Assembly (NCBI GenBank): GCA_035281625.1
Contig: DATEDO010000219.1
Span: 3,952 to 67,951 of the forward strand
Reading direction: 5' to 3'
DNA length: 64,000 nucleotides
Source of the DNA: Candidatus Methylomirabilota bacterium
Lineage (GTDB): Bacteria > Methylomirabilota > Methylomirabilia > Rokubacteriales > CSP1-6
The notes below the pieces were generated by a model. The model did not search any database. It saw only the letters and a list, made by a program, of their open reading frames with translations, and was not told where the DNA came from. This document shows, one piece after another, positions 20,746 to 64,000 of the stretch. Both the position numbers and the translations under genes were made by a program. Each line of letters begins with the position of its first letter. Position 1 is the stretch's first letter.

Positions 20746-21569
20746 GCGGCGGCCGCCCGCATCCGCAGCGCGCGACGGCGTCGCGCGGCCAGTCCGCCGA
20801 GTCCGATGAGGCCCAGGGCGGCGCCGATGAGCTGCGCTTCGGTGAGCCCGAACGCGATCGGGGGGTTGAGCCGGAGAAACTCGATACCGAAGCGCGCCGC
20901 GCTCGAGAGCACGAGATAGAGGCAGAAGACGCTGCCCTCCGGGTGCGATCTCCGGGCCCACAGAAGGAGCGCCGCGCAGATGAGGCCGGCGAGGAGGAAC
21001 TCGTATACCGGCGTGGGGTGGCAGGGCGTGTCGTCCGGCACCACGCCGTTGGGGAAGCTCGCCACGAGCTCGGGCAGCCCTGCGAACGCCCGCGAGGGCG
21101 GTACGAGACCGCCGTCGTATCGCGTTCCCCACGGCAGGTCGGTGGGCCGTCCGTAGTCGCCGTCGCCGGCCAGGTGGCAGCCGAGGCGGCCGATGCCATA
21201 GGCCAGCACGAGCGCGGGAGCGCCCGCGTCGGCGATGCGCGCCACCGGAAGCCCCCGAAGCCGCAGGTAGAGGAAGATCGCGGCCATCGCCGCGAGCAGC
21301 CCCCCGTACCAGGTCATGGTGTCGCGCCAGGCGCCGGCCCATGCGAGCAGGGACCACGCGCGACCCTCGTCGGCAAGGCTCAGCGCCTTGGATCCGGCCA
21401 CACCGAAAAGGATGGCGAGGGCCGTGATATCCCGGGCGACCCTCGCGTCCAAGGACCTTTGCCGTAGCTCGTAGGTCAGAAGCGCCGCGCCCACGACGAA
21501 GGCGGCGAGCAGCATGAGTCCATAGCCGTAGACGGGGACCTGCCCGATGTGGAAAAGCACCGGCGCCAT
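20742..21569 (-). CDS. lgt: Prolipoprotein diacylglyceryl transferase
   Basis: 275 aa. Lgt signature segments include GRLGCHLAGDGDYGRPTDLPWG, HPTPVYEFLLAGL and YLVLSSAARFGIEFLR. It has multiple TM helices. Confidence 0.85.
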   Translation of the reverse strand: MAPVLFHIGQVPVYGYGLMLLAAFVVGAALLTYELRQRSLDARVARDITALAILFGVAGSKALSLADEGRAWSLLAWAGAWRDTMTWYGGLLAAMAAIFLYLRLRGLPVARIADAGAPALVLAYGIGRLGCHLAGDGDYGRPTDLPWGTRYDGGLVPPSRAFAGLPELVASFPNGVVPDDTPCHPTPVYEFLLAGLICAALLLWARRSHPEGSVFCLYLVLSSAARFGIEFLRLNPPIAFGLTEAQLIGAALGLIGLGGLAARRRRALRMRAAAA

Positions 21570-47737: not shown

Positions 47738-49168
47738 CTACCCTCCGGACGCGGGCTTGGGGGGAGTCGGCGCCACGGACTTGGCCGGCGCCGGTGCCCC
47801 CGGCGAGCCCGGCGCCGGCGCGGCGGCCGGGGCCGGTCCACCCGCGGGGACCGCGGGCCTGGCCATCGCGGCCCGCTCCGGCTTCACCTGCATGCCCGGC
47901 CGCACCTTCTGCATCCCTTCCACGATCACGCGCTCGCCGGCGGCGAGGCCCTTGGTCACGATGGTGGTGTCGTCGATGCGCTCGTCGAGGGCGACCGGCT
48001 TCAGCACGACCTTGTCGTCGGCGCCCACCGCGAACACGATCTTCGTTCCCTGCTGGTCCATCACCGCGCGCTGGGGCACCAGCACCGCGTTGGGACGCTC
48101 CTCCACCACGCCGCGCACGCGGGCGAACTGACCCGGGCGCACGACCTTCTCCGGGTTGGGGAAGGAGGCCCGGATGTTGATGGTGCCGGTCTTGACGTCG
48201 ACCGCGCGATCCACGAAGACGACGCGCCCCTTGTGCGGGAACGTGCGGCCATCCGCGAGGATCAGCGTGAGCGCGGGTCCCGAGCTCTGCACGCGACCCG
48301 ACGGATCCAGCTGGATCCGCGGCGCGAGCTTCAAGTAGTCGACTTCCGCGAGCGGGAAGTCGGCGTAGATGGGATCGATCGCGGACACCGTGGCGAGCAG
48401 GGTCGGCTCGCTCTTGCCCACGAGGTTGCCGCGGTCCACCTGTACCTTGCCCACCACGCCGGTCACGGGGGACTTCACCGTGGTGTAGTCCACGTTGAGC
48501 TGCGCCTGGGTCACTGCCGCCTTCGCCGAGTTGACGGCGGCCTCGCCGAGCTGGATCTGGGTGCGCTGCGCCAGCTCGGCGTCCTTGAGGGCCGCCTCCG
48601 CCGCCTCCACCCCCGCGATGGCGACCTGCTCCTGGGAGAGCGCGGTGTCGAGATCCTGCTGCGGAATGGCCCGCGCCTGGGCGAGCGGCCGGTAGCGGTT
48701 GACGTCCTGCTGGGCCTTGCCGAGATCGGCCTTGCGCTGGTTGAGCTGGGCCTTGACGCGATCGACCACCGAGGTGTCGCGCGCCCGGATCAGATCGGCC
48801 TGGGCCTTGGCGAGCTGGGCGCGCGCCGACTCGAGCTGGGCCGCGTACTCCTCGCGCTGAATGGTGAACAGCGTCTGGCCCTGCTTGACTTCGCTACCTT
48901 CCTGGAACAGCACCTCTTCCAGCACGCCGGCCACGCGCGCGCGGACTTCGATCGTGGGTACGCCCTCCGTCCGCGCGGTGTACTCGCGGACGATGGGCAC
49001 GGACCGCTGCACCACCTCCGCGACGATCACGGGGGTGGGGGGCGGCGGGGGAGCCGCCACCTTCGCGCTGTTGGCGCGGTCGCACGCGGCGGTGGTCGAG
49101 AGTATCAGGAGCGCGAACAGCCATGCCGCCGCGCGGCGCTCCCGCTCAAGCCGGTTGTGTTGTCTCAT
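47738..49168 (-). CDS. RND efflux periplasmic adaptor (membrane fusion protein, AcrA/HlyD family), lipoprotein
   Basis: 476 aa from the ATG at 49166-49168, with AGGAG 6 nt upstream. The signal peptide and lipobox are LFALLILSTTAAC. The coiled-coil and beta-barrel MFP domains are present, and the tail is Pro/Ala-rich. Confidence 0.85.
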   Translation of the reverse strand: MRQHNRLERERRAAAWLFALLILSTTAACDRANSAKVAAPPPPPTPVIVAEVVQRSVPIVREYTARTEGVPTIEVRARVAGVLEEVLFQEGSEVKQGQTLFTIQREEYAAQLESARAQLAKAQADLIRARDTSVVDRVKAQLNQRKADLGKAQQDVNRYRPLAQARAIPQQDLDTALSQEQVAIAGVEAAEAALKDAELAQRTQIQLGEAAVNSAKAAVTQAQLNVDYTTVKSPVTGVVGKVQVDRGNLVGKSEPTLLATVSAIDPIYADFPLAEVDYLKLAPRIQLDPSGRVQSSGPALTLILADGRTFPHKGRVVFVDRAVDVKTGTINIRASFPNPEKVVRPGQFARVRGVVEERPNAVLVPQRAVMDQQGTKIVFAVGADDKVVLKPVALDERIDDTTIVTKGLAAGERVIVEGMQKVRPGMQVKPERAAMARPAVPAGGPAPAAAPAPGSPGAPAPAKSVAPTPPKPASGG

Positions 49169-49194
49169 GCCCGCTCCTGCGTGATGGAATCTAT

Positions 49195-49235
49195 TGGCCG
49201 CCGTTGACAGTAAACCGCACCGAGGGCAGACGTCT
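49195..49235 (-). promoter_or_regulatory. Candidate sigma70-type promoter for the RND operon
   Basis: The minus strand reads GTTTAC-16nt-TAGATT, ending about 25 nt upstream of the MFP ATG. This is weak evidence in a high-GC genome. Confidence 0.25.
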
Positions 49236-49262
49236 ACCGGCTGGCCGAGGGTCGCATCGCGG

Positions 49263-49310
49263 GCCCGCCCCGCGCCATAGGACCTTGGTCCACCCGGCGG
49301 CGGGGCGGGC
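49263..49310. terminator. Compound GC-rich stem-loop downstream of the AAEx transporter gene
   Basis: The outer stem gcccgccccgc (49263-49273) pairs with gcggggcgggc (49300-49310). An inner perfect hairpin ggacc-tt-ggtcc sits at 49280-49291. It shares the 15-mer GGCGGGGCGGGCGGG with the 30154-30231 inverted repeat. Confidence 0.5.
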
Positions 49311-49331
49311 GGGTGGGTCTTCCGCGACGCG

Positions 49332-51014
49332 TCAGGCCAACAGGGCCACGATGACGGGCCCCCAGGCGGTGAGCAAAATGTTTCCCACGGCATAGGGCAC
49401 GGTATAGCCAAGGGCCGGCAGCTTGCTCTGGGACTCCTCCTGGACGGCCCGCAGAGCGGCGGTGATCGTCCCCGCTCCGGTACACGCGCCCAGGAGGATG
49501 AGGGGGTTCATCCGGAGCACGTATCGGCCGAAGAGAATGGCCGTGACATGGGGCAGGATGGCCACCACCAGGCCGACCAGGACCAGGCTCACGCCGGACT
49601 TCTGGAGGCCCGACACGAAGCTCGGACCGGCGCTGAGCCCCACCACGCCGATGAAGACGGTCAGGCCCACGGTGTCGAATACCCACATGGCCGGCTCGGG
49701 GATGCGCCCGAACGTGGGATGCACGGCGCGCAGCCAGCCGAAGACCAGGCCCATGATGAGGGCGCCGCCGCTGGCGGTGAGGGTGATGGGAAGCCCCCCG
49801 AGCGTGAGCGTGAGCAGGCCCACCAGGCCGCCCAGGAAGATCCCGAGGCCGACGAAGATCATGTCCGTGGTGATGGTCGGGCGGTCGGCGTATCCGACCT
49901 CGCGGGCGGCTCGCTCGACGTCGGCCTTGGCCCCGACCAGGTTCAGCACGTCACCGCGATCGACGCGGGTTGCCGCGGAGAACGGCATGGGCTGCCCCAC
50001 TCGCGTGAGCTGGCGCAGGAACACGCCGCGAGCGGCCTCCATGGTCGCCAGCTCCGCGATGCTCTTCCCGATGACGTCGCGCCTGGTCACGACGACGTCG
50101 AGCACCTCGACCGGGAAGTCGAGCAGCTCCCGGTCGTCCTCCTCCGGGCCGATCACCGTGCCGCGCGCCATCAGCGCCTCGGAGCGAGTCATCACCGCGA
50201 CCACGTCGTCCTTCTGAATGACGGTGTCGGGGCGGGCCTCGACGATGACTCCGGCATGCCGGACGCGCGAGATGAAGACGCGCACGTCCTTGGGGAAGGC
50301 CTCGATCTGGCCCACCGTCTTCCCGATCATGCGCTCGTTGGCGACGCGATAGGCGCGGACGCCGAAGTTCATGAATGCGGAGCGGACGCCGGGCTCGGGC
50401 TCCTCGGTCGCCCCGCTCTGGCTCTGGTACTTCCTCGCCTCTTCCTTCAAGTTCACGCGCATCAACCGGGGGCCGATGCTGGGAATGAACCAGACGATGA
50501 AGGCGGTGCCGATGAGGTAGGTGACCGCGTAGGCCACCGGGATGTTGTTGATGAGCGCGGTCCTCTGATCCTGAGGCAGATCGAGCCGGTTGATGGCATC
50601 CGCGGCCGTGCCGATGACGGTGGATTCCGTGAACGCCCCCGCGAGAAGCCCCGCGGCGGTGCCCACGTCGTAGGCGAAGAGCTTGGCCGCCGTGAACGCG
50701 GCGATCAGGCACGTGACGCAGAGCACCACGGTGAGCGCGAGCTGGGGCAGCGCGTCCTTTTTCAACCCGCGAAAGAATTGCGGCCCGACCTTGTAGCCGG
50801 TGGTGAAGAGGAAGAGATCGAAGAAGACGTTCTTCACGATGGCGGGGACTTTGATATCGAGCTGACCGATGATGACTCCCGCCAGCAGCGTGCCCACCAC
50901 GGTGCCCAGGCTGAACGAGCCGATCCTGATCCGTCCGATGGCGAAGCCCACCGCGAGGGTGAGGAAGATCGCCAGCTCCGGGTGCTCACGCAATGCGCTG
51001 ACGAAGTAATGCAT
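49332..51014 (-). CDS. AAEx-family transporter (AspT/YidE/YbjL type, two central TrkA-C domains)
   Basis: 560 aa. The N-terminus ([40 protein letters not shown]) and the duplicated 5+5 TM halves flanking a cytoplasmic regulatory domain match the AAEx family. Confidence 0.8.
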   Translation of the reverse strand: MHYFVSALREHPELAIFLTLAVGFAIGRIRIGSFSLGTVVGTLLAGVIIGQLDIKVPAIVKNVFFDLFLFTTGYKVGPQFFRGLKKDALPQLALTVVLCVTCLIAAFTAAKLFAYDVGTAAGLLAGAFTESTVIGTAADAINRLDLPQDQRTALINNIPVAYAVTYLIGTAFIVWFIPSIGPRLMRVNLKEEARKYQSQSGATEEPEPGVRSAFMNFGVRAYRVANERMIGKTVGQIEAFPKDVRVFISRVRHAGVIVEARPDTVIQKDDVVAVMTRSEALMARGTVIGPEEDDRELLDFPVEVLDVVVTRRDVIGKSIAELATMEAARGVFLRQLTRVGQPMPFSAATRVDRGDVLNLVGAKADVERAAREVGYADRPTITTDMIFVGLGIFLGGLVGLLTLTLGGLPITLTASGGALIMGLVFGWLRAVHPTFGRIPEPAMWVFDTVGLTVFIGVVGLSAGPSFVSGLQKSGVSLVLVGLVVAILPHVTAILFGRYVLRMNPLILLGACTGAGTITAALRAVQEESQSKLPALGYTVPYAVGNILLTAWGPVIVALLA

Positions 51015-51036
51015 GCCGCGCCTCCCGTCCGCCGGA

Positions 51037-52566
51037 TTAGCTCTTGGGCTTGGTCTCCGCCCCGCCCCCGGGAGCCGGGGGCGGAACGCCGAAGTAGCGC
51101 CCCGCGGCCGGATGGACCGGGATCGTGATGCCCCGTAGCCCGGTCCGCTTGGAGATCTTGGCGCCCTGGGCCGCGCCCCGGGAGACGTAGTCGGTGTTCT
51201 CGAATACCAGCTTCAGGACCACCGCGGCCTCGCCTTCCGGGACGTCGGCATGCGTCACGAGCAGGGCGGTCGCCGCGACCGTCGTCACGCCGTCCTGTTG
51301 TCCCGGGTAGGTGTTGGCTGGGACCATGAGGCGGACGAGGCCAGGGCTCTGGCTGACCAGGCCCGCCACCGTGTCCACGTCCAGCGAGAGCAGGCGGATC
51401 GGATGCCGGGTCGCCAGGCGCTGTATCTCACGGGCGGGCGCGCCTACCGTCGCGAAGAAAGCGTCCAGGCGGCCACCTCTGAGCCGGGCCGGGGCGTCCT
51501 CCAGCCCGTCCTCGCGGACCTCGGCGAGGTCCTTCGGGGCGAGCCCATGCGCGGCGAGCACGGCGAGGGCGTCGGCGCGGGTACCTGAGTTCAGCGGGCC
51601 CAGGGCGACGCGCTTGCCGCGGAGATCGGCGACGGTCCGTATCGGGGACTTGGCGGAGACGACGATGTGCAGGGGCTCGGGAAACAGGCTTCCCAGGGCC
51701 CGGAGAGAGGTCACGGCGCCGCCCTGGGCGAACGCGCCCTCGCCGGCATACGCCATCGCGGCCACGTCGGACTGGACGAGGGCGTAGTCGGCCTCCTTGC
51801 TGGCGATGAGCCGGACGTTCTCCAGGCTGCCGACGGTCTCGACGTTGCGGACCTTCACCGTCGCGTTGATCTGCTGCGCGCGGGCGACCACGGCCTCCGA
51901 GATTGGATGGTATTCGCCTTCCTCGGGCCCGCTGGCGAAGGTGTAGACGTGCTTGCGCCGCGCCCGGCGCGCCGTGATGGCCTTGAGCGCGTGATCCAGC
52001 TCCTCGGAGATCATCTGATCTTCCTGGTTCGGGACGCCCGGCGGGGGAATGTCGACCATGGCGGCGAGCCGATCGATGAGCTGCTTCGCCTTCGAGGCGG
52101 GAGCGGCGTCGCCGGGCGCCGACGGCCGTCTTACCCCGGCGGCGGCGCTCTCCACGCCTTGCCAGCGGTTCCCCACCCACTCGTAAGTGGAGCTCCCGTA
52201 CACCCGGATCTCCTCGCCCGGCTTGGTCTCGCCGGGCTTCACCCCGAAGATGCCCTTCTCGGTCGCGCCGAGCACCTGGGCCAGGGTCCCCGGGCTCAGG
52301 CCTTCCCAGTCACCGAAGTCGTAGGTCTGGGCGAGCTTCAGGGTGGCGTTGTAGTAGACGGCGAGCCGGCTCGCCCCGCTTTCCGCGTCGGGCAGGGGAG
52401 AGCTGCCCTGGCGCCGGAGCGCGACCAGCTCGAAGAGCCCCGGCTTGAAGCGCTGATCGAGCTTCGTCTTCACCTCGGTGCGCAGCGCGGTGGCGTCCGG
52501 CCCGCGCGAACAGCCCAGCGCCGCGACGGCAAGCGCCAGGAACAAGGCCAGCGCGAGACGCTTCAT
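51037..52566 (-). CDS. TAXI-family TRAP-type solute-binding lipoprotein with ~190-aa N-terminal extension (orphan: no DctQM nearby)
   Basis: 509 aa. The signal and lipobox are LALAVAALGCS. The C-terminal ~310 aa carry the TAXI signature, including IPVHPAAGRYF. There is no adjacent TRAP membrane component. Confidence 0.75.
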   Translation of the reverse strand: MKRLALALFLALAVAALGCSRGPDATALRTEVKTKLDQRFKPGLFELVALRRQGSSPLPDAESGASRLAVYYNATLKLAQTYDFGDWEGLSPGTLAQVLGATEKGIFGVKPGETKPGEEIRVYGSSTYEWVGNRWQGVESAAAGVRRPSAPGDAAPASKAKQLIDRLAAMVDIPPPGVPNQEDQMISEELDHALKAITARRARRKHVYTFASGPEEGEYHPISEAVVARAQQINATVKVRNVETVGSLENVRLIASKEADYALVQSDVAAMAYAGEGAFAQGGAVTSLRALGSLFPEPLHIVVSAKSPIRTVADLRGKRVALGPLNSGTRADALAVLAAHGLAPKDLAEVREDGLEDAPARLRGGRLDAFFATVGAPAREIQRLATRHPIRLLSLDVDTVAGLVSQSPGLVRLMVPANTYPGQQDGVTTVAATALLVTHADVPEGEAAVVLKLVFENTDYVSRGAAQGAKISKRTGLRGITIPVHPAAGRYFGVPPPAPGGGAETKPKS

Positions 52567-52569
52567 GGA

Positions 52570-53781
52570 TCAGAACCCGAACATCGGCAGGGCCAGGTAG
52601 GCCTGGATGATGAACGCGTTGGTGATGTCGATGAAGAAGGCGCCCACCATGGGCACGATGAGGAAGGCGAGTGGGGAGGGCCCGTGGCGGTCGGTCACCG
52701 ACTTCATGATGGCGAGCGCGCAGGCGGTGGACGACATGCCGAAGCCGATCTGCCCCGCGGACATGATGGCGGCGTCGTAGGTTTGTCCCATGACGCGGAA
52801 CGTCACCTGCGTGGCGTAGAGCGTGATGATGATGGTCTGAGTGGCCAGGATCACCAGCAGCGGGCCCGCCAGGTTCACCAGGTCGAGCAATCGCATGGTC
52901 ATGAGCGCCATGACCAGGAACATGGACAGCGCGACGTTGCCCACCACGTCCACGGTGGCGTCGCTCATCTGGAACAGACCGGTCGCCGTCGAGGCATTCC
53001 GGATCACGACCCCGAGCAGGAGCGAGAACACGAAGTCCGGCAGGATGAATCCGGTGCCCGCGACCAGGCCCACGAGCAGCTTCCCGCCGGCCAGGCAGAG
53101 CAGGATGACGAAGAGCGTGGTGAGCAAGGACTGCGAGGTGACGGAATCCGCCTCGGCGGCGTCGGGCGTCCCGTCGGCGTCCGCGTCGGCGCCGGGCGCC
53201 GGTCCCTGCAGCTTGTGCCGCCTGAGGAGGTATTCGGCCACGGGACCGCCCAGCACGGCGCCGATGACCAGGCCCGCGGTGGCGCACGCCATGGTGAGCT
53301 CCATGATCCCCTGGAGGTTCATGGTTTCGCCGAGCCGGCCCGCATAGGCCGCGCCCGTCCCGTGCCCGCCGACCAGGGTGATGGATCCTCCGAGGAGGCC
53401 CACCACGGGATGCATGTCCATGGCGCGCGCCGCGCTGATCCCGATGAGGTTCTGCACCACGATGAGCACCACGCTGATCCCGAGGAATATGGCCAGCCGC
53501 GGGCCACCCTTGACCAGCATCCGCGCGTCGGCGGCGAGGCCGACCGTCGTGAAGAACATGAGGAGCAGGACGTCGCGCAGCCCCAGGTTGAAGCCCAGCC
53601 GCACGTGCAGGACGCCGTCCACCACGGCGAGGAGTAGGGCCATCAGGCCGCCGCCGACGACGGGCGCGGGGATGTTCAACCGCGACAGCAGGGGCACGTG
53701 GGCCACGAGGAGGCGGCCCAGGAACAGCACCGCGATGGAGACCAGCAGCGTGGAGATGAGATCGAAGTCTATCGTCCGCAC
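52570..53781 (-). CDS. gltS: Sodium/glutamate symporter
   Basis: 403 aa, with the GltS family 10-TM pattern and conserved segments (GISVVLIVVQNLIGI ... GFGMSSTACALAIMKSVT). Confidence 0.8.
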   Translation of the reverse strand: MRTIDFDLISTLLVSIAVLFLGRLLVAHVPLLSRLNIPAPVVGGGLMALLLAVVDGVLHVRLGFNLGLRDVLLLMFFTTVGLAADARMLVKGGPRLAIFLGISVVLIVVQNLIGISAARAMDMHPVVGLLGGSITLVGGHGTGAAYAGRLGETMNLQGIMELTMACATAGLVIGAVLGGPVAEYLLRRHKLQGPAPGADADADGTPDAAEADSVTSQSLLTTLFVILLCLAGGKLLVGLVAGTGFILPDFVFSLLLGVVIRNASTATGLFQMSDATVDVVGNVALSMFLVMALMTMRLLDLVNLAGPLLVILATQTIIITLYATQVTFRVMGQTYDAAIMSAGQIGFGMSSTACALAIMKSVTDRHGPSPLAFLIVPMVGAFFIDITNAFIIQAYLALPMFGF

Positions 53782-53869
53782 GCGGCGTCTCCGGGCCCCA
53801 TGCTGTCGCGATTCATCGGCCGATCATACGTCCGACCCCCGTCTTTCCTGTCACCTATTGGATCAGAGG

Positions 53870-55480
53870 CTAGGCCTTCGGGGCCTTCTTCGAGGCCTCG
53901 TAGGCGTCGCGGTAGCCGCGGGCGATGGCGCGCACGCCGCGTCCGATGTCGTCGTACACGTCGTCGCCGAGATTGGCGAGGGAGACGCGCAGGGACCAGT
54001 CCGGCGCCTCGAAGCCGCCGCCGTTCAAGAGCACGATCCCGTGGGTCTCGGCGAGCCGGAACGCGAGGTCCAGGGGATGGACGTTCTTCTTGAGATAAGC
54101 GACCGCATCCTCGCCGATGTTCTTCCGGGCCCAGAACTCGAAATCGATGAGCCCGTAGTAGGCATTGAACAGCGGGTTGGGGGCGACCTCCAGGCCCAGC
54201 CCGTCGAGGAGCGCGCGGGCCCGTCGGTGCACGATCTCCATGCAGGCCTTCTGATAGCGCTTCTCCGCGTCCATCAGCTCGGACAGGGAGAACATCGTCA
54301 TCATGACCTGCTGCGGGAGCGAGAGGCCGGCCGTGTGGTTCAGGCCGACGTCGCGGCTGTCCGCCACGATGCGATCGATGAACTTGATCTTCCTCGGCTC
54401 GAGGGTGAGCGCGCCGTAGCGCTTGTCGAGCGCCTTCAGCGTGTCGCCGGTGTGCTTGGCGATCATCGTGTCGTAGATGTTGTCCTCGTGCAGCGCGATG
54501 ACGCCCAGCCGCCAGCCCGTGCAGCCGAAATACTTCGAGTAGGAGTAGACGCCGAGAGTGTTCTGCGGCAGCTCGCCCAGCAGTGACCGGAAGCCGGGCA
54601 CGAAGGTCCCGTACACGTCGTCGGTGAGGAGCATGAGGTCGGGGCGCTTGGTCTTCACCAGCGTCGCGATCTTGCCGATGGACTCCTTGCTGAGCGCCAC
54701 CCCGGTGGGATTGCCGGGATTGACGAGGAAGAAGGCCTTGACCTTCGGGTCCTCGAGCTTCTTCAGCTCCGCGTCGGTGGGCTGGAAGCGGTTCTCCTGC
54801 GGCGAGGCGATATTGACCACGTTCAGCGCGTAGTCCTCGAGGTGCGTCATCTCGAGGTACGGCGTGAAGATGGGCGTGCCGAGGGCGATGGTGTCGCCCG
54901 GCAGGAGCAGGCGATTGGCCTTGAGCGACTTGAACAGGTAGCACATCGCCGCGGTGCCGCCTTCCACCGCGTAGAGGTCGAACTTTCCGGGGGGCCGCGG
55001 ATTGCCGCACACCGCCCACTGGATGTACTCGTGCACGATGCGCTCGTTGTGCACGAGCATCCGGTCGGGCACGGGGTAGTTGTCGCCGATGATGGAGTCC
55101 ACGATCTCGTGGACGAAGGCGTCCGGCTCGAACTTGAACTCCTTCACCGCGAACGGAACCATCTTCTTGAGGAAGTCCGCGCCGAGCATGTCGGAGTGCT
55201 TCGCGAGCCAGGCGTCCAGGCGCCCCGCGATGCCCTGGGCCGCGGGCATGCCTCCGACCCCCGCGGGATGCTCCATCACGCGCCGGCTCTCGGTCAACGC
55301 GAACTGGCCCAGCAGGAAGAACGCGTCGCGCGGGTCGGTGGCGATCCAGTTCGGGTTGCCGCGGCCCGCGTTGAGGAAGGGAGTCTGCGTGGTCCTGGAC
55401 GTCTTCTTGGCGAGCTTCGCCAGCTCGTCCTTGATCTCGAACGGCCCCATCTTGTCGAACTGCGTCAGGTCGATGGCCAT
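53870..55480 (-). CDS. asdA: Aspartate 4-decarboxylase (L-aspartate beta-decarboxylase, aminotransferase fold-I)
   Basis: 536 aa from the ATG at 55478-55480, with AGGAG 7 nt upstream. It aligns along its full length with characterized AsdA: FEIKDELAKLA, LNAGRGNPNW, YAVEGGTAAMCYLF, the PLP-Lys region YSYSKYFGCTGWRLG, and RIVADSRDVGLNHTAGLSLPQQ. Confidence 0.85.
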   Translation of the reverse strand: MAIDLTQFDKMGPFEIKDELAKLAKKTSRTTQTPFLNAGRGNPNWIATDPRDAFFLLGQFALTESRRVMEHPAGVGGMPAAQGIAGRLDAWLAKHSDMLGADFLKKMVPFAVKEFKFEPDAFVHEIVDSIIGDNYPVPDRMLVHNERIVHEYIQWAVCGNPRPPGKFDLYAVEGGTAAMCYLFKSLKANRLLLPGDTIALGTPIFTPYLEMTHLEDYALNVVNIASPQENRFQPTDAELKKLEDPKVKAFFLVNPGNPTGVALSKESIGKIATLVKTKRPDLMLLTDDVYGTFVPGFRSLLGELPQNTLGVYSYSKYFGCTGWRLGVIALHEDNIYDTMIAKHTGDTLKALDKRYGALTLEPRKIKFIDRIVADSRDVGLNHTAGLSLPQQVMMTMFSLSELMDAEKRYQKACMEIVHRRARALLDGLGLEVAPNPLFNAYYGLIDFEFWARKNIGEDAVAYLKKNVHPLDLAFRLAETHGIVLLNGGGFEAPDWSLRVSLANLGDDVYDDIGRGVRAIARGYRDAYEASKKAPKA

Positions 55481-55512
55481 GGTGTTCTCCTGAGTGGCGT
55501 GATGGCTCGTCG

Positions 55513-57207
55513 TCACGACAAGAGCATGATGAGGACCATGCCCCAGATCGTGAGCAGCGTGTTGCCGACCGCATAGGTGACGGTATAGCCCAGGGCGGGA
55601 ATCTGGCTTTGCGCCCGGTCGCAGACGAGACCGAGGGACGCCGTGGTCGTGCGCGCGCCGGACAGGATGCCGAGGAGGATGGCGTCGTGGAAGCGGAAGA
55701 TGTACTTGCCGACGAAGAGCCCGAGGATCAACGGCACGGTGGTGGCGACCGCGCCCCAGAGGAAGAGGCCGATGCCCTGGGTCTTCAACCCATCGACGAA
55801 GCCGGGGCCCGCCGAGATGCCGACGATCGCGATGAAGATGTTGAGGCCCACGGAGTTCATGAACCAGACGGTCTGGGACGGAATGCGCCCGAAGAACGGC
55901 TTGGTCGAGCGCAGCCAGCCGAAGACGAGGCCGGCGATGAGCGCGCCGCCCGCGGTCGAGAGCGTCAGGGGCACGCCCGCCACCTTGAGCACCAGCGCCC
56001 CGACCAGCGCGCCGAGCGTGACGGCGACGCCGACGAACGCCATGTCGGCCACGTCGGACGGCCGGTCGGGCACGCCGATCACCTTGGCGGCGGCGGACGT
56101 GTCCTGGGTGCGGCCGACCAGGGTGAGGATGTCCCCACGGTAGATCTTGGTATTGGGCAGGATCGGGATGGACGTCGCGACGGCGCCGCGGACGATCTTC
56201 GACAGGAACACGCTGCGCGCCACGGGCAGCGTGGCCAGCTCGGCGAGGGTCTTGCCGTCGACCTCCTTGCTCGTCACGTAGACGTCCACGCCCTCGACCG
56301 GGACGTTCAGCAGCTCGGGGTCGTCCACCTCCTGCGCGGCCTCGCCGATCACCTTCACGAGGACCTCTCGCGCCCCGGCGACGGCGACGATGTCGCCTTC
56401 GCGGATCACGGTGTCGGCCGCCGCATCCTCGATGGTCCCGTTGGTCCGGCGGATGCGCTCGACGAAGACGCGGGCATCCGGCACCATGGCTTCCGCCTCG
56501 ACGGCGCGGAGGCCGATGGCCTTGCCGCCCGGCCGTACCTTGAACGCCCGCAGCTCCCACTTGTGCCACGCCGACCCGGCGCCACCCATGGCGGCGGTGC
56601 CGCCCTGCATCCTCTCGTACTCCTTGCAGGCGGCGACGAGGTCCATGCGAACGAGGGCGGGACAGACGAGGGCGATCACGATGGCCGAGCCCACCGTACC
56701 GAACATGTAGGTCACGGCGTAGGCGATGGGCATGTTGTCGAGCAGGCCCTTCACCTGGTCGGGGGGGAGGCCGAGCCGGTTGATGGCGTCGGTGGAGAGC
56801 CCCATCGCCGCGGAGATGGTCTGGGAGCCGGAGTAGAGGCCCGCGGCATACCCCAGGTCATAACCCGCCGCCTTGGCGATGGCGACGGGAACCAGCAGGC
56901 TGAACACGCACTGAACCACGGAGAAGATCGCCTGCGGCAGGCCGTCCTTCGCCACCCCTCTGACGAACTGGGGGCCCACCCCGTAGCCCACCGCGAAGAG
57001 GAACATGAGGAAGGCGAAGGCCTTCAGCGGCTGATTGATGGTGATCCCGAGCTGGCCGATGATGACGCCGGCGAGTAGGGTCGCGGTCACCGAGCCGAGG
57101 CCGATGCCCTTGAAGGTGAACTTGCCGAAGTAGTAGCCGAGACCGATGGCGAGGAAGATCGCGATCTCGGGGTACTGACGGAATGTCGCGGCGAACCACT
57201 CAAGCAT
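55513..57207 (-). CDS. aspT: Aspartate:alanine antiporter-type AAEx transporter
   Basis: 564 aa. The AspT/YidE family N-terminus is [41 protein letters not shown]. It sits immediately upstream of asdA, and its start overlaps the decarboxylase stop by 8 nt. Confidence 0.75.
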
Positions 57208-59974
57208 GGTTCCCTCCGTTCTTCTTCCGGGCGGCGAGCACGTCCGGCTTCAGGAGCTTGAGCCCCTGTGAGGCCTGGTAGCCGTGGATCTCCTTCACGT
57301 CCAGCTTCCGCATGAACGTGATGGTCTCCCCGGTGATCACCTGGCCGGGGACCATGATGGGGAAGCCCGGGGGGTAGGGGATCACGAAGTTGGCGGACAC
57401 CATCTCGGGCCCACTCTTCAGCCGCTTGTCGATGTCCGGGCTGGCGAGCTTCACGAACTCGCAGTTGGCCTCGTCGTAGGCCATGAAGAAGGCCGGACGC
57501 ACGTGGCCCTCGTTGCTCGCGCCCTTCGGGTTGTCGCGGAACGCGTCCTGGAAGCGGCTGAAGTTCGGCAGGTCGGGCACGTCGGTCATGAGCGACTTCA
57601 CCCGCGCCGCGAAGGTGGCCTGCTCCGCGGGGCCGCCCTGAGCCAGGCGCTGCTCGATCTCGCGCGAGAGGTCGGCCAGCACCTTGATGAGAAGGGCGGC
57701 GTCGCTCCGCGTGTTGTTGATGTTGGTCTGGACGAGGATGCTGTTGCGCGAGGTCTTGTTGATCTGGATGTCGAAGCGCTCCGCCAGCATGCCCTTGAAC
57801 TGGGTGCCGTCGAAGCCGGCCGAGCCGCAGATGATGGTGAGGCGCGTGGGGTCGAGGGCGAACTCGTCTTCGTCCCAGGCTTCGATGGCCTGCCGCCAGG
57901 TGGAGTGGGGCGGCCCGTAGTCCTTGATGCCGGAGGCGCGGAACTCCGCCGGCACCATCTCCTCGGGCGTGGCCACGTGGAAGTACTTGGAGATGAGCGG
58001 GTGGGTGTTGATCTCGCGTCGGAGGCGCAGGGCGAGCTCGGTCATCTTCATCGTGAGCTCGTACCCCTCCAGCTCCATCTGGCGCCGCGCCACGTCGAGG
58101 GAGGCGATGATCTGGAGATTCGGCGAGGTGGAGGTGTGGGTGAGGAACGCCTCCTGGAACGGCCCCTCCACGTGGTGGAAGTCCTCGTCCCAGACGAGGA
58201 TCATCGAGCCCTGCCGGAGCGCGGACATCGACTTGTGGGTGGAGTGGGTCTGATAGACGCGGATGCGCGCCTTGTCCGGGTCGGGCAGGAGGTGCGTGTC
58301 GAGGAGCGAGCGGTCATTGGGATCGAGCGTCCCGTGCTTCGCGGCGAACGCCTTGTAGCGCTCGCGGTAGGCGGGGTCGCGATAGCGCGCCGTGAGCGTG
58401 GCGGCGGCGCCCATGGCGGTGCGCCGCCGATGGAAGGCGTTGAAGCGAGCGAAGCCGAACCACGCCTCGTCCCAGAGGAAGATGAGGTCCGGCTTGATGG
58501 CCAGGCATTCCTCCATCACCCGGGTGGGGTTGTACATGTGGCCGTCGAAGGTGCAGTTGGTGAGGTCCACCGCCCGCACGCGCGAAAGGGTGCCCTCGGC
58601 CTTGCAGGCGAGGAGCGCCGCCTTGATGGTCCTGAGCGGCACCGCGCCGTACATCGAGTACTGCGTCAGCGGGTAGGCCTCGACGTAGTAGGGTTGGGCA
58701 CCCGCCAGCACGAAGCCGTAGTGGTGCGACTTGTGGCAGTTGCGGTCGACGATCACGATGTCGCCGGGCCGGCACACCGCCTGCACCACGATCTTGTTCG
58801 AGGTCGAGGTGCCGTTGGTGGCGAGATACGCGCGCTTGGCGCCGAAGGCGCGGGCGGCGAGATCCTGGGCCTTCTTGATGTTGCCGGTGGGCTCGAGCAG
58901 GCTGTCGAGGCCGCCGGTGGTGGCGGAGGACTCGGCCAGGAAGAGATTGGTCCCGTAGAACTGGGCCATGTCGCGGATCCAGTTCGAGCGGAATACGGAC
59001 TTGCCGCGCGCGATGGGGAGCGCGTGGAAGGTGCCGATGGGCCGCTGCGCGTACTTCTTCAAGTTGCTGAAGTAGGGCGTCTCGAAGCGGTCGCTCACGC
59101 CGTCGAGGATGGAGAGGTGGATCTCCATCAGCTCCTCGACCTGGTGGAAGACCCGCCGGATGGGCGCCACCTCGGCGCTGCCGGCCAGGTGCTCGACGGC
59201 GCGGTCGGTGAGGAGGTAGAGGTCCAGCTCCGGACGGTAGCCCTTGATGGCTCGCGCGAGGGCGCCGGCGAGGGCGCCCGGCTCGATGCTCGCGGGGTCC
59301 ACGCGGAGGTTCCGCAGGAGGGTATCGCGCAGCGCCGGCATCTCGTGGCGGGAGCGGAACTGGAACCCGTCGTAGATCACCACGGCCTGCACATTGGTGT
59401 TGAACATGGCGCCGATCGCCGCGTCCTCGAAGCTGCCGACCTGCACGACCTCGTAGACGAAGGAGTCTTCCGGACGGCGCAGCCGGCGCAGATCGGCGCG
59501 GGACCGCTCCCAGCGGCTCGGGTCGTTGGGCGTGACGATGAGGACCTCGAAGTAGGGCTTGTGCCCGTTGCCCGGCTGTACGTCGGGGGGCAGCACGTCC
59601 GCCACCCGGCTCTCTCCTTCCTCGAGCGGGTCCCACGCCTTGGTGTCATGACGGTAGGCGCCGGTGACCAGGGCCGTCGAGATCTTGCCCACGAGCCGGG
59701 CGAACACGGCGGCGTTCCGCTCCTTGAGCGCCTCCGCCACCGTCCCCATGAGGTGGGGGCCGGGGTAGGCCCAGTAGTCCTCCAGCGCGGACAGCTCGGT
59801 GAGCAGCCGGGAGGCGTCCGGGTGCGCGGACTCCGCCGATGATCCGCGCGATACCGCCGCTTCCCACGCTCGGCCGATGGCGCCGAGCTCGCGCCAGCGG
59901 TCGATCCGCGCCTCCGCCGCCGAGAAGAAATCCTGAAAATCCTGCGCCTTGCGCTCGCCTTCCGCCTTGGCCAT
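57200..59974 (-). CDS. Orn/Lys/Arg decarboxylase family (biodegradative-type, fold-I PLP decarboxylase) with extended N-terminus
   Basis: 924 aa from the ATG at 59972-59974, with GGAGG upstream. It aligns with AdiA/CadA-type enzymes: [33 protein letters not shown], the PLP-Lys in [16 protein letters not shown], and [18 protein letters not shown]. It is about 170 aa longer at the N-terminus than AdiA. Confidence 0.85.
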
Positions 59975-60008
59975 GGCTAGATAACCTCCCCGGCTTCCCA
60001 ACACGAGA

Positions 60009-61340
60009 TCACAGAAGATCTCGCTCCCAGTTGATGATGAAGCGCACCTGATACCCGGTGGCGCGCGCGTCTTGCCGATCGAGAATCGCGCCGCGCGCCC
60101 GGAACCACAGCCCCTGCAGGAAGGCCGGCCACTTGAAGGGCGGCCGGTAGTCGACGGTGAGATCGTATTCGCCCTGGTCCGGCGCCGGCCTCCCGTTCGA
60201 CGGGTTGATGGCGTCCTTGCCCCACGCCATGTTCATGGTGGCGCTGAGCCCCTTCGTGAGCACGCTCGAGAAGTCGTAGGCCGCGCCGATCAGGAACGCC
60301 TTCTCGTTGGCGCGGTCGAAGTCCTGGTCGATCAGGGAGAGATAGGACGGAGAGCTGCCCCAGGGCTTCTGGATGTTGTTCCCCTTCGCGGTGAGGGTGA
60401 ACGCGCCGGTCAGGGTGAGATCGCCGATGACGAGCTGCGCCCGACCGCCGCCGTGCTGCGTCGCCCAGTGCCGGCCGTCGATCGTGGGACCCAGCAGGGC
60501 ATCCCCCACTCCCCGCTGATCCGTGAACTGGGCGCCGAGGCGCATCTTCATCGCCTGGTTCAGCGGGATCTCGTAGGCCACCTCGGTGTAGAAGGTGTTG
60601 ATGGTGTCGACGCCGTAGGAGTCGTTGATGTCGACCCGGAGCCCCGGGAGGGGGGTGAGGCGGACGCCGCCGAACCCGGCGCCCTCGTTGGTGTCCCGCG
60701 CCCCCGCCTGCTCGGACATGCTGATGAACTCATCCGCGTTCCGCGGCTTGATCTTCCAGAGAAAGCCGCCGAGATACTCCACCCACGCCACCTTGCCTCC
60801 CACGGTCACCCCCTGGAAGGTATTGGGCGTCATGCGGTTGTCGGCGGGGTTGATGTAGCCCTGGTTCACCTGCTGGCGGTAGCCTTTGACGATGACGTAG
60901 TCCTCGTACTTCAGCGCGCCCCAGGCCTCGCCCGGCACGTAGTAGCTTTCCTGACTGGGCTTGAGAAGGAGGGTGCCGTCGCGGTCCTCCGGCCCGTAGA
61001 GCTTCAGCGAGCCGTAGAGCGTGGCGCCCATCGCGAAGGTGTCCGCGAGCCAGCCCGACTGATACGTGATCCACCCGCCGGTGGCGAGCGCTTCGTTCTT
61101 CGAATCGTCGGTGTTGTTACGGTTGAAGTAGTAGATGCGGAAATGCACCTTGAGATCGGTGTCTTTGATGAACTTCGGCAGGGCGCTGGCCTGCAGCGCC
61201 TGCTGCAGGGGGTCGAAGAGCCGCTCGATCGGAGCCTCGTGGTGGGGTGGCGGCGGCGGCGCGTCCTCCGCGGACGCGAGGCCGGGCCACAGCGCGAGGG
61301 CCATCCCTGCCAACGCAATCACGGACCGTCTCATCGGCAA
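60009..61340 (-). CDS. OprD-family outer-membrane porin
   Basis: 443 aa. The signal peptide is MPMRRSVIALAGMALALWPGLASA. It has the OprD-like beta-barrel pattern with alternating aromatic/Gly strands and a C-terminal aromatic (…FIINWERDLL). GGGAGGG lies upstream of the ATG at 61340. Confidence 0.7.
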   Translation of the reverse strand: MPMRRSVIALAGMALALWPGLASAEDAPPPPPHHEAPIERLFDPLQQALQASALPKFIKDTDLKVHFRIYYFNRNNTDDSKNEALATGGWITYQSGWLADTFAMGATLYGSLKLYGPEDRDGTLLLKPSQESYYVPGEAWGALKYEDYVIVKGYRQQVNQGYINPADNRMTPNTFQGVTVGGKVAWVEYLGGFLWKIKPRNADEFISMSEQAGARDTNEGAGFGGVRLTPLPGLRVDINDSYGVDTINTFYTEVAYEIPLNQAMKMRLGAQFTDQRGVGDALLGPTIDGRHWATQHGGGRAQLVIGDLTLTGAFTLTAKGNNIQKPWGSSPSYLSLIDQDFDRANEKAFLIGAAYDFSSVLTKGLSATMNMAWGKDAINPSNGRPAPDQGEYDLTVDYRPPFKWPAFLQGLWFRARGAILDRQDARATGYQVRFIINWERDLL

Positions 61341-61473
61341 ACTCCCTCCCCAGTGCGACGACGTCTTGCGTGCGGGGAGAATCTACCCTCGGCCCGACGC
61401 ACCCCTCCATGGGACGAAGGTCCCATGGGGTTGGGACGGAGGCGGGCTTCGTCGCGGGGGCGGCGCGATCGGC

Positions 61474-62658
61474 CTACAGCACGACCTGGAGGAGGCGCTG
61501 CATGAGCTCCTCCAGAGAAATCATGGTGAGGAGGAGCGGGGCCACGGGAAGGAGCGTGATCACCGCCAGCTGCACCACGGTCTGCCTGGTGAAGGGCACC
61601 ATGCTCATGCTGCGGATGACCTCGAAGCTATTGGCCAGGTCGGCCAGGGACTGGATGTCGGCGCTGCCGACCAGCGGCTCGGCCGGGGGCGTCCCGCGTA
61701 GCCACTTGGAGTCGAACTCCCGGACGTAGCGGCCGGCGAGGGTGCCGTACTCGCGCAGGCCCACGCGCCGCGCGGTGGCGAGGTGAGGCGTGAAGAAGAG
61801 CAGAGGCCCCACCACGATCAGGAGCAGGAAGAGGACCACCGCGGCCAGCTCCAGCTTGAAATCCGTCAAGACGGCGCTCTGAAAGAAGATCCGGTTGGCG
61901 AGGAAGCCCGAGAGGAGCACGCCGTGGGCGGCCAGGAGCGGTGCGAAGGCCACGGCGGTATTGGTGAGGAAGCCGAGCCCCCCGGCGCGGTCGGGATGGG
62001 TGGGCACGAGCTTCAAGCGGCACCGCGCGACCTTCGAGAGGAAGCGGATCCAGATGAAGATGCGGAAGTACCAGCGGAAGAGGAGGAATTGGAAGATCGG
62101 CACGCTCACATAGGCGAGCCACCATCCGGCGGGGGTGAGGCGGTAGCCGCCCTCGCCCGGCAGGGAATACCAGGTCGAGGCGTGCAGGATGGCGTAGTGG
62201 GGCCAGAGGAACACGATGCCCACGTACACGAAGGCGATGAGGAGCAGCTCCGCCACGATCGAGTTCCGCAGACGCAGGGCCGAGGCCACCGCCGCGTCGA
62301 AGCGCGCCCGGGACTCCTCCGCGATGAGGTCGCGCTCGAGGAATTGCCGGATCAGGTGCCGCATGCGCTGATGCACCACCAGCTCGGCGACGATGAGGAG
62401 CGGGACGGCCAGGAGCAGTCGCGTGTGCACCTCGACGTCCATGACGAACGGCACCTGCACCGCCGACCCCCACGCGCGTCCCGCCACGACCGACAGGAGG
62501 AAAGGGGGAAGCCAGGCGAAAAGCGCGATGACGACGATGCGGCGCCGCAGGTGCTCGAGCGCGTCACCGGAGAGGTGCGCGCGCCGGACGAGCTGATAGA
62601 GGGGCCCGCCCAGCACGAGCGAGAAATCGTAGGGATCCGACGCCTCCGCGGTGGTCAT
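61474..62658 (-). CDS. Hypothetical polytopic membrane protein (394 aa)
   Basis: The ATG at 62656-62658 overlaps the GH13 stop (ATGA). It has 8-10 hydrophobic helices rich in Trp, Phe and Arg. No family is recognized, and the ORF-track N-terminal 90 codons are rejected. Confidence 0.55.
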   Translation of the reverse strand: MTTAEASDPYDFSLVLGGPLYQLVRRAHLSGDALEHLRRRIVVIALFAWLPPFLLSVVAGRAWGSAVQVPFVMDVEVHTRLLLAVPLLIVAELVVHQRMRHLIRQFLERDLIAEESRARFDAAVASALRLRNSIVAELLLIAFVYVGIVFLWPHYAILHASTWYSLPGEGGYRLTPAGWWLAYVSVPIFQFLLFRWYFRIFIWIRFLSKVARCRLKLVPTHPDRAGGLGFLTNTAVAFAPLLAAHGVLLSGFLANRIFFQSAVLTDFKLELAAVVLFLLLIVVGPLLFFTPHLATARRVGLREYGTLAGRYVREFDSKWLRGTPPAEPLVGSADIQSLADLANSFEVIRSMSMVPFTRQTVVQLAVITLLPVAPLLLTMISLEELMQRLLQVVL

Positions 62659-64000
62659 CGGGCGGTCACCTCGAACACGTGGTATCCCCAGGCCGGCAGG
62701 TCCAGGTAGAGTCCGCGGGACACGAGCTCGTGGCCGTCGCGATCGTACCGGGCGGGGCCGAGGAGATCCTGGAGCCGGACGGATCGTCCGGCGAGATCGG
62801 GATACGGCAAGCGGACATAGCACTGGGCCTGATGCCCCGCGTAGTTGACGGCGGCGAGCCGCCGCTGGCCGCTCGCCCCGTCCCAGGCCGAGACGATGAA
62901 GCAGTCCCAGGTCCAGTTGCCGTCCCACGCGGGGGAGGCTTCGAGCAGGCGCCAGTCGCCTTCGCGCACGACGGGCTGGGCCAGGACGGTGAGCAGCCTC
63001 AGATAGAACTTGTGCCGGGCGTCGTCCAGGGGCTCCTGCGGGGCCCGGACGAGATGCGGCGAGATGCGCTTTCGGCGGCCCTCGAGCTGGCCCTGATGGA
63101 AGAACCGCAGTCCCGGGGACAGGAACGTGACCACCGCCGCCGCCTCGTGCATGCCGGGGGAGAAGGTGGCGGCGGCCCGTGGCTCATCGTGGTTCTCCAG
63201 GAAGCGCGCGAGCCGGGCCTGGTAGTCGAGCCCGGCGTGGAGATGCTCGCGTGCCGGACGGGCGTGCCCGTCGCGGAGGCGGTCGTAGAGCCGCTTGTCG
63301 TACGCGTAGTCGAAGCCCCGCTGGAGCATCTCCCACTCGAGATCCCAGTAGACCTCGGCCATGAAGCGGAAGCCGGGCAGCCGCTCGCGCACCCGCGCGG
63401 TGGCCTGGGGCCAGAACGAGACCGCGCGCCGCCCCCACGTCCGCTCGAACACGTCCGGCAGGACCAGCATGGCCATGTCGCAGCGCACCCCGTCGCACTG
63501 CTGGGAGATCTTCAGGAGCTCGCCGGTCATCGCCTCCGCGGTGGCGGGATTGCTGTAGTCGAGCTGCAGCGTGTCCGGCCACCCCGAGAAGTACGGGTCG
63601 CGGCCGTGGGCGAGGAGGAGCTCGCCGTGCGTCCGTTTGATCCAGACGTAGTTCTGCGGCGCGCGGGCCTGGTCCATCTCGGTCCCGGCCACGTAGTGGG
63701 CGGGATGGCCCTCGACCCAGGGATGGTCCAGGCCGGTATGGTTGGGGACGAAGTCGAGCATCAGCCGGAGGCCGCGGCCGCGGAGGCGCTCCCGCAGCCG
63801 GGCGAGCGCCCCGTCGCCGCCCAGGGCGGCGTGCACCGTGTAGCCGGTGATGGCGAATCCGGATCCTCCGATGTCCTCCTCGCGGAGGTCGGGCAGCGTG
63901 GCCTCGAACTCGTGTCGCCACTCGGGATTGCTCCGCGAGACCTGCTGGCCCGCCTCGCCCGTCTGCCACACGCTGAGCAGCCACACCCAGTCGAAGCCCA
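62655..64000 (-). CDS. Glycoside hydrolase family 13 (alpha-amylase superfamily) enzyme, 5'-truncated by window end
   Basis: The GH13 conserved regions I, II and IV are present (DFVPNH, GVRCDMA, FLENHD). The ORF is open to the window edge, and the N-terminal barrel strands are missing, so the gene continues beyond 64000. Confidence 0.75.
   Translation of the reverse strand, partial: GFDWVWLLSVWQTGEAGQQVSRSNPEWRHEFEATLPDLREEDIGGSGFAITGYTVHAALGGDGALARLRERLRGRGLRLMLDFVPNHTGLDHPWVEGHPAHYVAGTEMDQARAPQNYVWIKRTHGELLLAHGRDPYFSGWPDTLQLDYSNPATAEAMTGELLKISQQCDGVRCDMAMLVLPDVFERTWGRRAVSFWPQATARVRERLPGFRFMAEVYWDLEWEMLQRGFDYAYDKRLYDRLRDGHARPAREHLHAGLDYQARLARFLENHDEPRAAATFSPGMHEAAAVVTFLSPGLRFFHQGQLEGRRKRISPHLVRAPQEPLDDARHKFYLRLLTVLAQPVVREGDWRLLEASPAWDGNWTWDCFIVSAWDGASGQRRLAAVNYAGHQAQCYVRLPYPDLAGRSVRLQDLLGPARYDRDGHELVSRGLYLDLPAWGYHVFEVTAR

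Follow-up and report, generated by a model that had tools for sequence, protein, structure and literature searches.

The closest described counterpart of the locus considered here is found in Bordetella pertussis, in which the 503-residue lipoprotein BP0403 has been proposed to act as binding protein for the Na+/glutamate symporter GltS (BP0402), the end of whose gene is overlapped by the BP0403 gene (Jaques et al. 2025, Commun Biol 8:1201, PMC12344293). BP0403 comprises an alpha/beta N-terminal domain (NTD, residues 20-139) reported to be PilO-like, a helical dimerisation domain and a TAXI solute-binding domain (residues 208-503). It binds L-glutamate with a dissociation constant (Kd) of 180 nM; Tyr219 and Gln263 proved essential for binding by mutagenesis, and the point mutation L201R abolished dimerisation (PMC12344293). 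TAXI-GltS fusions are also known in Lachnospiraceae, and the evidence published in 2025 for TAXI-GltS systems comprises a single Bordetella protein and a few genome contexts (PMC12344293). Here we describe gltS together with the gene for an elongated TAXI lipoprotein in a 64-kb stretch of DNA of about 70% G+C (the window, that is, the whole stretch analysed), in which the genes of interest all lie on the minus strand. The pair is a further TAXI-GltS system of the class first described in B. pertussis in 2025, not a new partnership, and we consider it likely that GltS and the 509-residue lipoprotein act together as a binding-protein-assisted Na+/glutamate symporter. The parts of the pair are the following:

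52570-53781, minus strand: gltS, Na+/glutamate symporter of the ESS family (TC 2.A.27), 403 amino acids (aa); TIGR00210 415 bits (cut-off 311), PF03616 379 bits
52564-52572, minus strand: junction of the gltS stop and the TAXI start, TGA TCC ATG, 3-nt gap, same frame
51037-52566, minus strand: elongated TAXI lipoprotein gene, 509 aa; TIGR02122 254 bits (cut-off 84), PF16868 208 bits
52510-52566, minus strand: signal peptide and lipobox (...AALGC), residues 1-19, read from the sequence
52150-52509, minus strand: N-terminal alpha/beta domain (NTD), residues 20-139, from the AlphaFold2 (AF2) model
51952-52149, minus strand: disordered Pro/Ala linker, residues 140-155, then helical hairpin 159-171/180-204, from the AF2 model
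51091-51951, minus strand: TAXI solute-binding domain, residues 206-492, with a glutamate-type site
51910-51912, minus strand: codon of Y219
51772-51774, minus strand: codon of Q265

The lipoprotein begins with MKRLALALFLALAVAALGC, which carries the lipobox, and Cys19 is invariant among 84 homologues. The TIGR02122 match spans residues 201-492 only and the PF16868 match residues 210-492, while residues 1-200 gave no Pfam or NCBIfam match; the original prediction, made from the DNA of the window, had described a 509-aa lipoprotein with an extra N-terminal region, and this description is borne out. A structure prediction for the extension, suggested at the same time, resolved it into an alpha/beta NTD and a helical hairpin. 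The AF2 model was built on protein P0001, which is identical to the window protein at 508 of 509 positions, with an alignment of 84 sequences, and has a mean per-residue confidence (pLDDT) of 83; a model of the NTD alone reached 89. In the model, the signal helix comes first, the NTD is composed of helix 25-39, strands 45-58 and 67-78, helix 92-98 and strands 119-131 and 134-138, and the TAXI fold is formed by residues 207-492. The domain boundaries of the NTD, hairpin and TAXI domain agree with those of BP0403 within a few residues, the key Tyr is residue 219 in both proteins, the key Gln is residue 263 in BP0403 and 265 in the window protein, and in both proteins all Trp residues are located within the NTD. 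By analogy, the hairpin appears to correspond to the helical dimerisation domain of BP0403. Its hydrophobic positions L167, A168, V171, I186, L190, A193 and I197 are conserved, and the stripe formed by L167/V171/I186/L190/A193/I197 is compatible with a putative dimer as deduced from PMC12344293. The label 'orphan' that the original prediction had given to this TAXI protein falls away, as its cognate partner is the adjacent gltS; likewise, the N-terminal domain and the partnership, which had been put forward as new, were published in 2025 for BP0403/BP0402 (PMC12344293).

The TAXI domain shares its fold with the glutamate-binding proteins VcGluP (VC0430, 8S4J/9IBO) and TtGluBP (TTHA1157, 1US4/8U79), to which it is 31-32% identical. 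In contrast to the window protein, VcGluP and TtGluBP are soluble, monomeric proteins of 300-330 aa that lack an NTD and a helical domain, and their partner is a DctQM-like TRAP permease, not GltS. A phmmer search with the TAXI domain gave E=1e-41 for TtGluBP (1US4) and 3e-32 for VcGluP (8S4J), and in a Foldseek search its four best PDB neighbours were L-glutamate-bound structures of TtGluBP and VcGluP (TMt 0.86-0.88, root-mean-square deviation 2.5 Å). The ligand contacts of VcGluP (PMC11574862) were mapped onto the window protein via a HMMER alignment, with a numbering offset of 28 that was verified on four residues. Y45, S75, Q93, E125, G156 and G203 of VcGluP correspond to Y219, S247, Q265, E297, G328 and G375 of the window protein, all of them identical, and the Tyr, Ser, Gln and Glu contacts are shared by TtGluBP as well. 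S247, Q265 and E297 are invariant in the 84 homologues and Y219 is present in 83/84. The position of VcGluP M201 is occupied by Thr, as in TtGluBP, and that of Y200 by Ala; in VcGluP, Y200 had only a 3.5-fold effect, and aspartate is not bound by VcGluP, whose core residues are the same (PMC11574862). Because the contact residues are shared with glutamate-bound VcGluP, the predicted ligand is L-glutamate, possibly L-glutamine too.

The elongated architecture is frequent in metagenomes, with more than 200 full-length clusters (485-541 aa, at least 93% query cover, 52-100% identity), and this number of homologues together with a G+C content of 0.90 at third codon positions (GC3) indicates that the TAXI gene is real. 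A search with residues 20-205 alone returned 249 clusters (50% identity), almost all of them about 500 aa long and matched at 20-205; the NTD and the helical region thus appear almost confined to TAXI proteins of about 500 aa. Residues 24-86 of the NTD were matched in 11 separate stretches (E=1.7e-16) of an 881-aa 'hypothetical protein' of pea (Pisum sativum; P0331, KAI5409523.1), a match that may be a repeat, a contamination or a compositional artefact. In the 84 homologues, the motif C-S-R-G-P-D immediately following the lipobox (residues 19-24, 52495-52512) is invariant or nearly so, and it is kept even in members that are only about 30% identical in the NTD, with Ser or Thr, not Asp, at position +2. 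The motif could serve as a sorting signal or as a contact site.

The genomic context was compared in 20 loci with upstream DNA, which encode 19 distinct proteins of 32-75% identity to the window protein and stem from Methylomirabilota/Rokubacteria metagenome-assembled genomes (MAGs), Burkholderiales MAGs, the cultured alphaproteobacterium Indioceanicola profundi and unassigned contigs. In 20/20 elongated-TAXI loci, gltS is located directly upstream on the same strand. Measurable in 13 loci, the distance from gltS to the TAXI gene ranges from -4 to +3 nt: it is -4 nt (an ATGA overlap) in seven Burkholderiales-type loci and +1 to +3 nt in loci of the Rokubacteria type, the window included. In B. 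pertussis gltS likewise lies directly upstream with tight spacing, and neither locus has a TRAP permease gene nearby; the Bordetella genes overlap by 3 bp, whereas those of the window are 3 nt apart. This spacing is consistent with translational coupling, which we infer from the gene layout. Moreover, in the Rokubacteria-type loci (the window, L001, L006, L007, L008 and L016) gltS and the TAXI gene share one reading frame, with TTC TGA NCC ATG/GTG conserved, and the two frames are parted just by TGA and one codon.

The shared frame probably explains the run-through 'fusion' gene calls from error-prone assemblies. Four of these (P0273, P0287, P0366 and P0228), which begin within the 3' portion of gltS and run on into the TAXI gene, were considered as true GltS-NTD-TAXI fusions and rejected, because the signal peptide and lipobox are retained in them alongside Arg/Ala-rich stretches of the frameshift type; artefacts though they are, they still document the adjacency of the two genes. 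A natural fusion is encoded by a Ca. Fimenecus sp. (Clostridia incertae sedis; L017, 5521-7644), in which 708 residues combine a TAXI domain (1-307) with GltS (316-707). Like the fusions of Lachnospiraceae (PMC12344293), this protein contains the same two modules as the window pair, yet within one polypeptide of a Gram-positive host, with TAXI at the N terminus and without the NTD and the helical domain. The Ca. Fimenecus fusion falls outside Lachnospiraceae, the source of most reported TAXI-GltS fusions. In two Burkholderiales-type loci (L010, 3099-4823; L014, 11498-13462), a SulP-family permease (Sulfate_transp and STAS) follows directly downstream of the elongated TAXI gene; the SulP frame of L014 opens right after the TAXI stop, and the gene call P0241 continues from the TAXI gene into the SulP permease.

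For the window pair we propose the following mechanism, which draws on the architecture, the lipobox, the conserved glutamate contacts, the invariant gltS synteny and the natural fusion from this analysis, and on nanomolar L-glutamate binding, dimerisation and the docking model from the BP0403 paper (PMC12344293). The two genes would reside on one transcript and probably undergo coupled translation. The lipoprotein would be exported and lipid-anchored via Cys19, its C-terminal TAXI domain would capture periplasmic L-glutamate (possibly L-glutamine) with high affinity, and its helical hairpin would mediate dimerisation. By analogy with BP0403, the NTD and the TAXI domain may then dock on the GltS dimer. 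The docked lipoprotein would pass the substrate to GltS, and GltS would carry it inward with Na+ by an elevator mechanism.

Several observations weigh against this proposal. First, in the window protein the residue following the lipid-modified Cys is Ser, not Asp. By the rules established for E. coli, Ser at this position specifies sorting to the outer membrane and not retention in the inner membrane, although Lol sorting rules vary between phyla. Second, colinear numbering places Arg at position 201 of the window protein, where BP0403 has Leu; the alignment in this region has an indel relative to the protein P0313, and the correspondence of Arg201 to BP0403 L201 is accordingly uncertain. Third, the PilO-like fold reported for the NTD of BP0403 was not significant in our Foldseek search of the NTD against the PDB, in which the best entry reached E=0.03, PilO (2RJZ) ranked 23rd at E=0.48 and none was significant. 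Fourth, GltS itself bears no signature of binding-protein dependence by length, identity or neighbour-joining tree. The window GltS, a canonical protein of 403 aa, matches the same equivalog model as E. coli K-12 GltS (b3653), has equal length and is 47% identical to it over 384 aligned residues. Its identity to E. coli GltS (45-47%) equals that to distant TAXI-linked GltS (45-47%), so that the two are equally diverged from it. Among the TAXI-linked GltS proteins compared (window 52570-53781, L023 2461-3666 and the GltS of L021-L025), E. coli GltS is 43-52% identical to the set and the deeper TAXI-linked lineages are 45-47% identical among themselves; in a small neighbour-joining tree, E. coli GltS does not clearly fall outside. 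These values suggest that GltS proteins may have acquired or given up the association with a binding protein with no evident change of their own. Fifth, the likeness to BP0403 (UniProt Q7VSK8) is one of architecture, residue positions and synteny, not of sequence alignment. Bordetella entries were absent from the results of homologue searches that started from a Burkholderiales MAG protein and from P0313; a scan of genome contigs with narrow patterns yielded 15 loci, none from Bordetella, and cluster look-ups gave Indioceanicola, not Bordetella. A screen of 378 proteins for residue positions (Y219, Q263, L201, A94 and others) found no BP0403-like sequence. BP0403 belongs to another phylum, whereas the nearest relatives of the window protein are Methylomirabilota/Rokubacteria MAGs. 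Finally, the authors of the Bordetella study call for experimental verification of the functional coupling of TAXI and GltS (PMC12344293).

The resemblance of the window GltS to the autonomous symporter of E. coli, to which it is as close as to distant TAXI-linked GltS, also favours a different view of the pair, namely that GltS transports alone and the lipoprotein is a glutamate sensor or a regulatory accessory of GltS, or else a glutamate-binding lipoprotein of the outer membrane. The gltS gene of E. coli is flanked by recG and xanP and has no binding-protein gene adjacent; the Ser after Cys19 of the window protein would suit an outer-membrane location under E. coli rules, and the NTD has no assigned function. 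However, in covalent TAXI-GltS fusions, both that of Ca. Fimenecus and those reported in PMC12344293, the binding domain is attached to the transporter itself, the strict synteny and tight spacing point to a stoichiometric complex, and the differences in Lol sorting between phyla blunt the argument from Ser. We therefore judge an accessory or outer-membrane role improbable.

In the window, the TAXI-GltS pair is embedded in a cluster of co-directional genes, unlike the BP0403 locus. The neighbours are:

60009-61340, minus strand: OprD-family outer-membrane porin, 443 aa, first gene of the co-directional cluster; PF03573 85 bits
57200-60004, minus strand: Orn/Lys/Arg-family (OKR) decarboxylase, 934 aa; PF01276 240 bits
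55513-57207, minus strand: aspT1, Asp:Ala antiporter, 564 aa; TIGR03802 645 bits
53870-55480, minus strand: asdA, aspartate 4-decarboxylase, 536 aa; NF006755 761 bits, TIGR03801 754 bits
49332-51014, minus strand: aspT2, paralogous Asp:Ala antiporter of the AAEx family, 560 aa; TIGR03802 676 bits (cut-off 547)

The family membership of the genes is unambiguous. The order of transcription is porin, decarboxylase, aspT1, asdA, gltS, TAXI gene, aspT2 and an operon for a resistance-nodulation-division (RND) efflux system. From the porin to aspT2 the successive gaps are 4, -8, 32, 88, 3 and 22 nt, the negative value being the 8-nt overlap between the 3' end of the decarboxylase gene and the aspT1 start. 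The distances of 3 nt to gltS and of 22 nt to the second AAEx gene named in the original prediction thus agree with the coordinates, all on the minus strand; its range had omitted the rest of the co-directional cluster (asdA, aspT1, the decarboxylase and porin genes, 53870-61340). A scan of 48800-62800 for promoters and terminators found nothing exceeding the expectation from shuffled sequence, and operon boundaries are therefore drawn from gene spacing alone.

The same RND operon follows gltS-TAXI in L006 (DATJFY010000121.1), a contig labelled Verrucomicrobiia, with identities to the window of 91% for the RND protein, 81% for the membrane fusion protein (MFP), 84% for GltS and 75% for the TAXI protein. 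The other close relatives all carry Rokubacteria or Methylomirabilota labels; the bin label of L006 or else the lineage assignment of the window is questionable. Upstream of gltS, L006 carries DcuA/B and DASS transporter genes.

An aspartate:alanine exchange and decarboxylation system composed of AspT and AsdA is that of Tetragenococcus halophilus (AspT/AspD). As in this system, aspT1 and asdA of the window are adjacent, and their products exceed the equivalog cut-offs of TIGR03802 and TIGR03801; both window AspT proteins are above the former. The AspT-AsdA system needs no binding protein, whereas in the window it flanks TAXI-GltS and is accompanied by a second aspT paralogue. The 934-aa decarboxylase lies below every NCBIfam equivalog cut-off and has about 180 extra N-terminal residues; pairing of an OKR decarboxylase with an AAEx antiporter instead of an APC antiporter seems unusual.

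The set of aspT, asdA, decarboxylase and porin genes recurs beside gltS-TAXI in the Rokubacteria loci L001, L002, L007 and L016, in differing arrangements. In the Burkholderiales MAG loci L013 and L015, an orthologous decarboxylase (64% identity) and a divergent AAEx protein (31%) precede gltS-TAXI, and L012 carries asdA. AspT-like genes thus occur in 6/20 loci (L001, L002, L007, L016, L013 and L015), on varying sides and strands, and are absent from L003, L006, L008-L012, L014, L021, L022 and L024-L026. Neighbours of the AspT, AsdA and decarboxylase types accompany the pair in part of the loci only, with shifting position and strand. The AAEx neighbour is variable and not a conserved partner.

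These counts bear on the idea that the binding protein works with AspT2, alone or beside GltS, and delivers aspartate or glutamate. The start of aspT2 only 22 nt past the TAXI stop speaks for it, as do the aspT2 orthologues adjoining gltS-TAXI in L001, L002, L007 and L016, and AAEx and ESS proteins both belong to the CPA/AT group with a scaffold-plus-core architecture (PMC8396727). On the other hand, AspT-like genes are missing from most related loci and change side or strand elsewhere, and the pocket retains glutamate-type residues, with which VcGluP does not bind aspartate. AspT2 is thus a highly improbable partner. Of the proposal that the lipoprotein delivers its substrate to a non-TRAP secondary carrier, the evidence favours the part that concerns GltS, whose gene lies upstream in 20/20 loci, and not the part that concerns AAEx.

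A TRAP permease was sought in the same material. The polytopic open reading frames (ORFs) of the window encode GltS, two AspT proteins, an RND pump, MatE, TauE and Lgt, and no TRAP membrane ORF of the DctM/DctQ type (fused DctQM-like) was present in the 64 kb, which upholds the earlier statement that TRAP membrane subunits are absent. Among ORFs with at least 6 transmembrane segments within 5-10 kb in 16 related loci, no DctM/DctQ-type permease was found either; the search for TAXI membrane components that had been suggested covered these stretches, and the ORFs tested as an intended positive control beside the conventional TAXI genes of L018 and L019 were not DctM-like. There is only a very slight chance that the protein is an orphan serving a TRAP-TAXI permease (fused DctQM-like) encoded elsewhere in the genome, with the adjacency of gltS incidental: its C-terminal part is a genuine TAXI domain (TIGR02122, 254 bits), orphan genes for TRAP binding proteins are known and 64 kb of the genome are in view, but gltS is the immediate upstream neighbour in 20/20 deeply diverged loci at a distance of -4 to +3 nt, no DctM/DctQ-type ORF occurs in the neighbourhoods checked, and the conserved synteny, the tight spacing and the natural TAXI-GltS fusion make a distant permease unlikely. 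The synteny, the tight spacing and the natural fusions weaken all three of these alternatives.

The TAXI-GltS pairing is widespread in soil lineages, comprising Methylomirabilota/Rokubacteria, Burkholderiales MAGs and Alphaproteobacteria; its gltS synteny holds without exception in the cases examined, and the residues that contact glutamate are conserved throughout the family. The published TAXI-GltS hypothesis gains strength from these results, which also supply many sequences for coevolution or structural work, while opening no new question. The sole element not previously described is the repeated association of the pair with Asp/Ala antiporters and decarboxylases, which is not discussed in PMC12344293. 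Judged from gene neighbourhoods, this association may reflect a metabolic link, and the pair probably supplies glutamate alongside Asp/Ala exchange within the decarboxylation/antiport cluster. That TAXI-GltS is a working part of an island for acidic amino-acid decarboxylation and antiport, beyond stand-alone glutamate scavenging, appears doubtful to us. If it were true, captured glutamate might be converted to aspartate via the transaminase activity of AsdA and so feed the energy-yielding decarboxylation of Asp to Ala; in another version, the lipoprotein would serve AspT2 as well, given the related scaffold-plus-core architecture.

Elsewhere in the window, about 30 kb from the TAXI-GltS locus, the genes for Lgt (prolipoprotein diacylglyceryl transferase; 20742-21569, minus strand) and gamma-glutamyltranspeptidase (21638-23431, minus strand) adjoin each other, the latter being a periplasmic, glutamate-releasing enzyme.

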